Positions 1-3,814 of a stretch of DNA of 64,000 bases are shown here, in pieces. Source of the stretch: Dirinaria sp. TL-2023a (Eukaryota). Position numbers and translations under genes: made by a program. The stretch is from NCBI GenBank assembly GCA_051941275.1, contig JAVEBF010000005.1, positions 1 to 64,000 of the forward strand. Reading direction: 5' to 3'. The notes beneath the pieces were generated by a model. It saw nothing but the letters and a program-made list of their open reading frames with translations. It had not been told where the DNA came from and did not search any database. How positions within the stretch are numbered: the stretch's first letter is position 1; each line of letters starts with the position of its first letter.

Positions 1-745
1 GTTACCATGCAGGCTGTTTTGTGCAGGTTGTTCCACGGCGTGTAGATGATTGTGACGTTCTCTTTCTTGTTCCCTGTTTAAAGAACCCCTTAGAATTTTT
101 TTTCTCAATTTCCTCCCCCTTTTTTCTCTTCTTTTCCCTCGGCTTTTCTTGGGCTCAGAGGCGAGGGACGCGTGTATAAAGTAACCATACCTTCAATAGA
201 ATTCGCTTTCGTCAGCTGCACACAATCTTCCACCAGAGCCGCGGGCAATCGATCCCATTCCTGCCCCTCCTGCAACCGGAGGTAGATATGTGCGCTGGAG
301 AGGTTGTCGGCGTGGAACTATCAAAATTTCACCTCCCCACCTTGTCAGCTATTTTTTCTCTCTCTCCTCTTCCTCTTCCCCGCCCTCTCTCTAACCAAGA
401 TATAACCAAGAAACGTACGTACCCTAAGAAGAAGCACACCACGTCAGTTCTAAACCGGGGCCAGCAATAAGGCAGTGGGCGATTGGAAAAAAAATTTAAG
501 TAGTAGGCCTACGATACCATACATCCTCGTCCCAGCCGTATTTGATCAGCTCCTCGTCTTTTATTTTTAAAAAATAGTCGCCCGTGTTAGTTAATTAAGG
601 GGCCAGGCGTGGAGGGACATGGGGTTTGAGAGGGTGTTGTTTGTGGGGGGGGAAGGGAAAGGGAGCGCACACTTTCGAATTTGTCCTTGCCCACGTAGAT
701 TGTGGCTGGTGGGTCGACGGCCGTCGAGGTGAAGTAGTAGACCAT
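1..745 (-). CDS. JLP2: CCDC25/Jlp2-family NFACT-R (DUF814) protein, 5' part; runs off the window edge
   Basis: Not in the ORF track. Exons 745-673, 557-518, 423 (1 nt), 317-191 and 73-1 splice to [104 protein letters not shown], which matches the CCDC25/Jlp2 N-terminus as I recall it. All introns are GT-AG. Confidence 0.92.
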
Positions 746-1449: not shown

Positions 1450-3814
1450 CTATCGATTAAGATCCCACTGGGGTTTCAATGTTTCCGAGAAATCATGCCG
1501 GGTCCCGACCACTTCTTTAGGTATCCGACTCACTCGGTAGGCGCCAGAGCGGATGCTGTAGAGCTGGCGCTCCGACATAGCACTGCGGTTGCTGCGAATA
1601 CTTCCAGCATCGGAAGCTGTTGCGCTGCCGGGGAAGCGGGGTGGAGGCGCGAAGTCTAAAGAGGTGAAAGTTCCTGACTTCCTCAACATGTGCCTGAAAG
1701 CAAGGTCAGCACTGATTATAAGTTTCTAGTAGGATTGAATAAGACTCACGGACTAGGCATGACCGAGAGATCATCGAATGAGGACACCAACGGTAATTGA
1801 GCTGGCACCCTCGGCGAGTAGGGTCGGAAACCACCTCGAGGACTGTCTGCCCGGCCATTCGCACGATCGTTAGAATTCCCAGGAGGAGCAAAGTCGATCG
1901 GCAAGGCGAAGGCGTCTTCCTTCAACATGTGGGGTGAAGGTAGTGCCTTCAAAGGTTGCGGAAGAGGTGGAGGTTTTTGCGGGCCACGGCCACGGTTAGG
2001 GCCGAAGCGACCGGATGCAGACGAGAACGCGCGAGGCACAGGGGCGAACCCACTACCGGACATTGTTGCGTGATGGCGTGCCGCACCACGGAAGCGCGGT
2101 GGTGTACGCGGCGGAGGGGTCATTGCTCGGCGACCATAGGGTACAGCATAAGGGGCATGGGCTGTCACGAATTGGCCACTTGCCGGGTCGAATATAGCCC
2201 CATCGCCAAGGTACCCTCCATCGTAGTCTTCGTAGTATTGTCCAGCACCTTGTGGCCCTGCTTTGCTTTCGTCGAAGTACTCTTTGTAAAATGATCTGAT
2301 GCGATTTGCTCGTTGCTCTGGGTTGTCGTGCGGATCATCGGGTGGTAAGGGCCGGACCCCCATTGATAGTCTTCGGATATCGAACCCAAGCTCCTGCTCA
2401 CCCAGATTCTCCCCTACATGCTCTGCGACTGGAGGTAGGCCCCCTTGATCAGGTACACGAGCGGTAACTGATGGTTGTCGTGACCTAATATTCTTGGGTG
2501 AAGGAGGGGTGACTTTAAAGCCATCACCGTAATCGCTCTCGTCATCAAAGAAGTTCAGTTCCTGGCTCGAATGAGAGGCAGCTTTAAGGGATTGAGTCCT
2601 AGGTGGTCTGGAGAATTCTGCAGATGATTTGGCTTTTACTGCTACAGGAGGTGACTTTCGATTTCCAGACTGCTGAGATGAGGACGAAGCACTGTGGAGG
2701 GAGCCGCTTTGAGACTGGATCGGACTCTGCCTTTGCGATTGACCCGGGGTCTGGGAAACAACATCTGCAGATGGTTCCCGACTATGAATGAGCGGCCCAA
2801 GATAGTTGTTGCTTTTGCGAAGATCGACACCATCCTTGCTCGTGGAAGAATCACGAGGATCAGCAGCTGCGGGTGGTGCGAGGCCAGCACTGACAGGTTT
2901 GGGCGGCAATCCTTTACGAGGAACTCCCAAAGCTGGTTGTGGAGGACGTATCTGAGATACACTGTCGATGGACACAGGCGAGCGAGATGTCGGGGGGACC
3001 GATCTTGACATACGTTGGGCGTTTCGTAAGAGGTTTTGATTCATGCCGTCGTTCTTCCGACCACTCGAACCAGAGCCCGTGTAGCTCGAGGAATCGTCCG
3101 CAGCTCGGCGGGAAGGGTAGGAATGCGTGGAGGCGGTATCATTCGTTTGAAAAATGGTAGCTGGGCGGTACCGATCATCGCCACTGTGGATCGTACGGGA
3201 CATAGAATGCAATGACTCACGAGAGCCATGCAGGCCAGGCGGTAAGACGTAGGGGCTTCCAATATCCATGTCCATCGAAAGACCGCGAGGTCGCTGATGA
3301 CCTATCCCTTGGCCGACTTCTTTCATTGTCATCTCTGGCTCGCCCTTTCTACCTTTCCAAATCTTCTTGGACTGCTTTGATGCTGGTCCACCGGCATCCA
3401 TGCCAAAGTCTAAAGACCTATGGGGGTCATTGGCGTCCTCACGATAGAGTTTTCTAACGTGTCTGCGATGAAGATAAATAAAGATTAGGATCGCAATAGC
3501 AAGAGGGATCCTGCACGGATTGTTAGCTTGACTCAAGGAAGCCATGGACCTCATCAAACATACAATAGACCACACAGGACTGGTAAGGTGACGCTGCTTG
3601 AATCGGAAGACTTTTGACATTTGTCATTAGAATCTCCGGAAGTACAATGGTTCGAATCGTCGGAAGCTCCTCGTTTCGCTATATTCGACAATTGAGTCTT
3701 GGTGGTTTCGAGGAACCTCGCCAGAAGTGGTGGCGCGGGTTTGAAACCAGTGGTAGGTACTGATGCACGACCTCTGAGGTGAAGAAAGCCATGACTGTGG
3801 TGTAGTCGACCCAT
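1450..3814 (-). CDS. Single-pass membrane protein with a long Ser/Pro-rich cytoplasmic tail (Skg6/Tos2-like fungal family)
   Basis: Exons 3814-3564, 3510-1750 and 1693-1450. Cys pair (CTSGDSNDKCQK), then TM helix IPLAIAILIFIYL, basic HRRHVRK, and conserved-looking blocks RANRIRSFYKEYF and LDFAPPPRF. Confidence 0.75.

Follow-up and report, generated by a model that had tools for sequence, protein, structure and literature searches.

Introduction

The ratchet points of recursive splicing, also described as 'zero-length exons', set a 3' splice site directly against a 5' splice site (AG/GT), and removal is stepwise. Exons of a single base have been reported from a plant and from fungi. Arabidopsis APC11 carries a constitutive one-base exon between two GT-AG introns; the base is needed for the frame, was confirmed by cDNA or RNA reads and was proven by mutating it in reporter constructs, and the database model was wrong (Guo & Liu 2015, PMC4674806). 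In their view, the two introns are recognized by intron definition and taken out successively, in a recursive-like manner (PMC4674806). Fusarium CYP621A contains a one-base exon in the context AGGGT, confirmed by SRA reads, which its authors count as the second to be found and the first fungal one (Nelson & Syed 2026, PMC12940212). A long-read annotation of Coprinopsis cinerea reports 13 exons of 1 nucleotide (nt) in 13 genes (PMC12230235). Here we consider the first 64,000 nt of contig JAVEBF010000005.1 of Dirinaria sp. TL-2023a (assembly GCA_051941275.1), hereafter the window. The minus strand at its start encodes part of a gene of the CCDC25/Jlp2 type, a member of the NFACT-R proteins. Sequence comparisons lead us to read the G at position 423 of this gene as a true and constitutive single-nucleotide exon, with a probability of roughly 0.85.

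The Fusarium exon shares with this locus the AG-G-GT core, a conserved motif, neighboring exons that are out of phase and reconciled by the base, a gap of about twice intron length, and an exon that annotation misses (PMC12940212). The Fusarium case concerns one genus, 20 orthologues and the middle base of a Gly codon (PMC12940212), whereas the exon proposed here would supply the third base of a Trp codon in CCDC25/Jlp2. Unlike the one-genus CYP621A exon, the layout described here occurs in loci near four Pezizomycotina orders, where it is known from sequence. APC11 differs in being a plant gene with A as the retained base and, by its authors' account, in not being conserved in rice, whose two APC11 genes are intronless (PMC4674806). 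The Coprinopsis annotation indicates that fungal spliceosomes handle one-base exons and that their omission breaks gene models, but it concerns a basidiomycete, and the passage in question names no genes and reports no conservation (PMC12230235).

Stwintrons are defined by an internal intron that interrupts a splice signal of an external intron, with nothing retained between the exons (Fekete et al. 2017, PMC5587772). They resemble the present case in consisting of two adjacent U2 introns in Pezizomycotina and in the result of alternative loss, which leaves phase-2 and phase-0 introns one base apart (PMC5587772). Here, in contrast, both introns appear complete on their own and the one base between them would be kept. 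The outcome, a 1-nt shift of an intron, is alike and the structure is not. A ratchet point of recursive splicing keeps no base, whereas here one coding base would be kept between two short introns. One-base exons are already known, and this one would be a further case, notable for its apparent age, its place in a housekeeping gene and its uniform mis-annotation. An exon of this kind in CCDC25/Jlp2 was not described among the full-text literature matches listed, with subscription-only papers and supplements lying outside the search.

Reading frame and splice signals at position 423

The initial annotation had proposed two introns separated by a single G, and all of its coordinates for this layout were recovered in the minus-strand sequence. 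Two complete canonical introns, here called A and B, lie exactly one base apart. The base is needed both for the reading frame and for a conserved residue, and without it no ordinary splice yields that protein. Keeping the G reads ...GAT GTA TG + G + TTC CAC, which restores the sequence D-V-W-F-H as first claimed, a motif conserved from fungi to human CCDC25. The predicted mRNA junction with the G retained is GATGTATGGTTCCAC. Trp is present in 120/120 motif-intact sequences and in human CCDC25. Only G satisfies both the coding need (TGA is a stop, and TGC and TGT encode Cys) and the splice-site consensus.

Other ways of joining the exons change the protein. Skipping the G by joining 518 to 317 (junction GATGTATGTTCCAC) leads to the frameshifted product ...CSTPTTS...KIVCS and a stop at TGA 214-212. 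This part of the initial annotation stood, while an in-frame alternative had been overlooked. Enumeration of all single in-frame GT-AG introns around the site yields a sole solution, which joins donor 522 (GAT/GTATGG), 5 nt upstream of the intron A donor, to acceptor 318. The product, ...GWDED-FHADN..., lacks exactly Val-Trp (hereafter delta-VW) and has the junction GATTTCCAC. A rival explanation takes this single 205-nt canonical intron as the main splice, with a protein lacking Val-Trp and the internal AG-G-GT left unused. It gains from being the only single in-frame GT-AG solution and from GTATGG, a good donor with which intron 4 of this gene is also inferred to begin. We nevertheless judge it quite unlikely. 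Where introns are short, the nearby acceptor 424 is the more likely partner of donor 522, a join that gives a frameshift, and the Trp shared by all 120 intact sequences and human CCDC25 speaks against a protein without it. Comparison with related loci and gene models bears further on the question.

Recurrence of the layout in related loci

Metagenome contigs were scanned with an alignment of relatives, which provided 80 related loci. The motif [VILM]WFH is contiguous in 70 of these and interrupted at that point in 10. Half of the interrupted loci (L006, L042, L056, L066 and L069) are complete and show the phase mismatch of the window, with a phase-2 donor within the Trp codon (TG/GT) and a phase-0 acceptor before Phe (YAG/TTY). 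A conserved AG-G-GT in orthologous loci had been proposed initially as a check on the exon, and it is present in all five, dividing the gap into halves of 53-62 and 57-109 nt. Composition-preserving shuffles reproduce such an arrangement at a frequency of 0.007-0.057 per locus in the five metagenome loci. The product of the frequencies over six loci (the window and these five) is ~9e-10, if the loci are independent.

The arrangement is conserved in orthologues whose intron sequence has diverged. Introns are not alignable between loci, as no blastn match of >=80% identity falls in introns except for L066/L068. L068 is a 5'-truncated near-copy of L066; the two genomic contigs are 97% alike and form the only pair with >=90% identity among the 80 loci (blastn). 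Intron A begins with GTAAAT, GTATGA, GTGAGC or GTGACA elsewhere, and the donor gtacgt of intron B in the window is found also in L066. The locus L056 is particularly relevant for the rival single intron. There, Ile (ATA) precedes the Trp and zero single in-frame GT-AG solutions exist; therefore a one-base exon is the only canonical reading and delta-VW is impossible. In the other five of the six loci, the single in-frame GT-AG solution is delta-VW. A delta-VW splice would leave unexplained why AG-G-GT with intron-sized halves recurs in 5/5 other loci. The initial proposal that a one-base exon completes the Trp codon thus appears well supported comparatively, by the five loci, by L056 and by the [VI]WFH reading frames described below.

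Explanations that dispense with a one-base exon altogether invoke a single non-canonical intron (GT...TA or TA...AG), a U12-type intron, a decaying pseudogene or an indel in the assembly. Formally, the G that completes the Trp codon could belong to either end of one 199-nt intervening sequence, and GTATCG is similar to the beginning of the U12 donor consensus GTATCCTT. However, the same phase mismatch is found in five independent assemblies with unrelated intron sequence, and a local assembly error is therefore ruled out. The bases after TGG vary among loci (TA or TG), so there is no consistent non-canonical boundary. A pseudogene is contradicted by exons that are intact and 88% identical to relatives. 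Explanations of this group are highly improbable.

Two specific intron types were rejected for the window. U12 introns have a donor of the GTATCCTT or ATATCCTT type and a branch site of the TCCTTAAC type close to the 3' end. The donor here is GTATCGTA, no TCCTTAAC-type branch site lies near and upstream of 424, and the orthologous intron A donors listed above are not U12-like. For a [D1,2] or [A2,3] stwintron, an internal intron would have to split the donor G/T or the acceptor A/G, and none does; removing 517-318 shifts the frame. The string A-G-G-G-T at 425-421 fits neither class, in agreement with the initial annotation.

Some relatives carry only one intron at the motif. Loci L047 and L049 have a lone phase-0 intron after TGG (TGG/gtatgg...cacag/TTC), and L044 and L045 have a lone phase-2 intron (TG/gtttgt...gaag/G TTC). 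L044/L045 versus L047/L049 constitute the discordant phase-2/phase-0 pattern in the present data. Lone phase-2 and lone phase-0 introns one base apart are as expected if either neighbor of a one-base exon was lost. As a separate observation, L051, L058 and L062 have no intron at the Trp and instead an intron ~4 codons upstream (GWPE/gt...ag/D IWFH), a third position in the same conserved stretch.

The loci were placed in a quick tree with support from the Shimodaira-Hasegawa-like approximate likelihood ratio test (SH-aLRT) only. Loci with both introns and the G are found near Pezizales, Eurotiales, Chaetothyriales and Lecanorales sequences. L056 is nearest to Kalaharituber (Pezizales; 99), L042 falls among Aspergillus, L006 and L069 are nearest to Cladophialophora (96), and L066 is nearest to Lepraria, Puttea, Cladonia and Usnea (98). 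The forms that might represent one-base intron 'sliding' are the phase-0-only L047, nearest to Corynespora, and the phase-2-only L044, nearest to Coemansia on a long and unsure branch. Taxonomy was checked for six genera; the other named genera are given their customary class.

Gene models and intronless reading frames

A census of 213 proteins at the motif found 120 intact sequences, 37 with exactly two residues missing, 48 that are otherwise disrupted or pieces of genomic open reading frames (ORFs), five classed as FH start and three as FH lost. The named Lecanoromycete models stand apart, as none of the 50 is intact. A two-residue deletion is found in 25, other disruptions in 20, FH start in two and FH lost in three. 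The expectation that annotation would miss an exon of this kind is thus borne out. Twelve further two-residue deletions lie outside Lecanoromycetes, in Phyllosticta (3), Wilcoxina, Sarcosagium, Lichina, Neoarthrinium (2), Verticillium (2), Cladophialophora and Myotisia.

The exact two-residue deletion in 37/213 proteins, including 25 named Lecanoromycete models, could be taken to favor the single 205-nt intron. The delta-VW models are software predictions, however. Pairs of 213 and 211 residues exist within the same species, in Phyllosticta citriasiana (P0064/P0065) and Verticillium dahliae (P0125/P0206), and the Val-Trp difference therefore reflects annotation and not biology. The delta-VW join is the choice of gene predictors in many fungi and for that reason deserves serious weight. 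Near-identical proteins of 213 residues with VW and 211 residues without it were seen in the same species or in sister genera, the third such pair being P0084/P0086. It may be that certain public gene models already include the one-base exon or join the exons non-canonically. Three models of other Teloschistaceae genera that read through the site (P0001, P0123 and P0184) continue with W-Y-R after the Trp, as the window would (TGG TAT CGT). This suggests a conserved intron A donor, consistent with TGGTATCG.

Five Logan ORFs run uninterrupted through all intron positions, and all five read [VI]WFH. Having no introns, they probably represent spliced transcripts. P0028 is sister to Gyalolechia and shares 87% identity with the Gyalolechia model P0014, from which just Val-Trp is missing. 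P0099 and P0035 belong to a Lecanorales-like group. P0099 and the Pseudevernia model P0112 have identical sequences flanking a 37-residue insert in the model. The insert begins with V-R-T right after the Trp, which is the translation expected from a retained intron B starting with GTACGTAC. P0130 falls beside Trapelia, whose model P0072 has a two-residue gap, and P0126 groups with Cladophialophora, whose model P0203 has the same kind of gap. The presence of [VI]W in 5/5 intronless ORFs placed beside delta-VW models argues against delta-VW as the main product. Beyond ...KKERKD the C-terminus of P0028 changes to VWVRERREG..., as a retained last intron beginning with GT would produce in a transcript that is otherwise spliced.

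Competing splice sites and possible regulation

Several points weigh against the one-base exon in this particular gene. In the window gap, AGGGT with both halves >=40 nt arises in 4214/20000 composition-preserving shuffles (0.21) because intron B is purine-rich, and the window alone is therefore weak evidence. The case for this locus is one built on its relatives. The donor of intron A, GTATCG, lacks the usual G at +5, and the rival donor GTATGG, 5 nt upstream, seems no weaker. With such a competitor, delta-VW or frameshifted transcripts could make up a substantial share in this species. Intron absence is the one trait by which the Logan ORFs are presumed to be transcripts, and a genome-transcript pair from one species was not found among the 80 loci (blastn). 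The tree is a quick version with SH-aLRT support only, in which the window row fills 48% of columns.

The one-base exon might be both real and regulated. Skipping of the G (518-317) or a 522-424 join would cause a frameshift and nonsense-mediated decay (NMD) and might tune the level of CCDC25. Such regulation would be an addition to the one-base exon and not an exclusive alternative, and we consider it unlikely. Skipping does lead to the stop at TGA 214-212 and two donors compete 5 nt apart. In a potato invertase experiment related in the APC11 study, 33% of transcripts skipped an artificial one-base exon (PMC4674806). Against regulation, no ORF of the skipped form occurs among the 213 proteins, and constitutive use alone explains the deep conservation. 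The NMD-coupled switch suggested in the initial annotation is without support, although the premature stop exists in the sequence. Appreciable mis-splicing from the strong-looking donor 522 could still occur in this species.

Gene identity and structure

The assignment to the CCDC25/Jlp2 type follows from several comparisons. Exon 4 alone (42 residues) matches Pfam PF05670 (NFACT-R_1) with 34.7 bits against a cut-off of 29.8 (E value 2.8e-8), and exon 5 extends the profile weakly (E value 0.0064, profile positions 78-97). The best database matches of exon 4 are CCDC25-like proteins of lichen-forming Teloschistaceae, with 88% identity. A related protein matches structures of human CCDC25 (PDB 7eof, 8woh and 7eoe) over ~190 residues with an E value of 7e-53, and DIWFH...LSSAH is identical in the two, residue for residue. 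Human CCDC25 and yeast Jlp2 belong to the same protein family; this comparison is made at the protein level and is silent on gene structure. The window product falls inside the Lecanoromycete CCDC25 clade of the quick tree (SH-aLRT 99, with the window row filling 48% of columns).

The gene is small and is read on the minus strand of the window. The window holds its 5' part and the remainder lies beyond the window edge (Table 1). The first 102 residues, from the N-terminus, can be recovered, while the C-terminal half, where full-length CCDC25 orthologues have a coiled coil, is beyond that edge.

Table 1. Features of the CCDC25/Jlp2-type gene at the start of the window, in the order of transcription, followed by competing signals
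Feature	Position	Strand	Signals and basis
Exon 1 with ATG (745-743)	673..745	minus	24 residues and first base of an Asn codon; agrees with N-termini of relatives; donor A/GTGTGC inferred
Intron 1, 115 nt	558..672	minus	GTGTGC...ACTAAC...AAAG; ACTAAC as branch site; boundaries inferred from frame and relatives
Exon 2	518..557	minus	AC GAG GAG CTG ATC AAA TAC GGC TGG GAC GAG GAT GTA TG; rest of the Asn codon, 12 residues and TG, the first two bases of the Trp codon; agrees with relatives
Intron A, 94 nt, GT-AG	517-424	minus	donor GTATCG; branch-like CTGAC 447-443, its A 20 nt before the 3' end; acceptor cttcttcttAG
Putative single-nucleotide exon G	423	minus	third base of Trp (TGG); sequence, and AG-G-GT in L006, L042, L056, L066 and L069
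Intron B, 105 nt, GT-AG	422-318	minus	donor GTACGT; branch-like CTGAC 348-344, its A 27 nt before the 3' end; purine-rich tract 392-352; acceptor ttttgatAG
Exon 4	191..317	minus	TTC CAC GCC GAC AAC from 317; 42 residues and G; PF05670 match
Intron 4, 117 nt	74..190	minus	donor GTATGG; purine-rich tract ~150-94; acceptor aaacAG; boundaries inferred from SIEG/NKK of relatives
Exon 5, partial	1..73	minus	GG AAC AAG..., 22 residues; gene continues off the window; weak PF05670 match
TGA met when the G is skipped (518-317 join)	212..214	minus	ORF 212..328, ...KIVCS and stop
Rival in-frame donor GAT/GTATGG	517..522	minus	Val-Trp codons as 5' splice site; overlaps the first base of intron A

Some features of the surroundings deserve mention. 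The purine-rich tracts inside intron B and intron 4 are long and composed of G and A. The introns of the window gene measure 94-117 nt, about twice the A and B introns of metagenome relatives, which mostly have 53-62 nt (one of 109 nt in L066). A Ser/Pro-rich ORF of 625 codons occupies positions 1746-3623 on the minus strand, directly upstream of the CCDC25-like gene. Models from Teloschistes hypoglaucus (P0019, 952 residues) and Villophora (P0024, 745 residues) contain a homologue of this ORF fused to CCDC25. Gene order is thus conserved here, and models sometimes merge the two genes in error.

Splicing mechanism and history

We suggest that two ordinary U2-type GT-AG introns, A and B, abut the G, and that the removal of both would restore the Trp of D-[VI]-W-F-H. 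Each would be recognized by intron definition, as is usual for short introns of fungi. With its own donor, branch point and acceptor, each of the two would need no exon in between. The acceptor of intron A overlaps the donor of intron B (AG/G/GTACGT), and two spliceosomes can probably not occupy the site simultaneously, so successive removal appears most likely, as was argued for APC11 (PMC4674806). Either order of removal should leave a usable site. The sequences themselves show the anatomy, its recurrence at other loci and the [VI]W of relatives' intronless ORFs; that the mRNA of this organism carries the G, which intron leaves first and how old the arrangement is, we infer from them.

The layout is probably old, as it appears common to loci resembling Pezizomycetes, Eurotiomycetes and Lecanoromycetes. 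An ancient two-intron state, followed by loss of A, B or both, would explain the relatives with a lone phase-2 or phase-0 intron. We lean, with a good deal of caution, towards this being the oldest and most widely conserved single-nucleotide exon seen, with the G kept since near the base of Pezizomycotina and the two-intron state acting as the stable intermediate that explains one-base intron 'sliding'. The scope of such an ancient exon would cover Pezizomycetes, Eurotiomycetes and Lecanoromycetes and, by the signature of the two-residue deletion, probably also Sordariomycetes, Dothideomycetes and Lichinomycetes.

Implications

All 50 named Lecanoromycete models examined are wrong at this site, together with models from seven or more genera outside that class, and the Trp that they lose is conserved up to human CCDC25. 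A simple rule could repair such models, namely to seek AG-N-GT in gaps of about two intron lengths between neighboring exons whose phases do not match. A long-kept exon of this kind would also offer many natural sequence variants for studying the successive use of overlapping 3' and 5' splice sites. Alongside its single-intron relatives, the two-intron state would provide a concrete route to discordant introns one base apart, distinct from the route through stwintrons. If a one-base exon has indeed been kept here for possibly hundreds of millions of years, it would show intron definition to be workable with essentially no exon.

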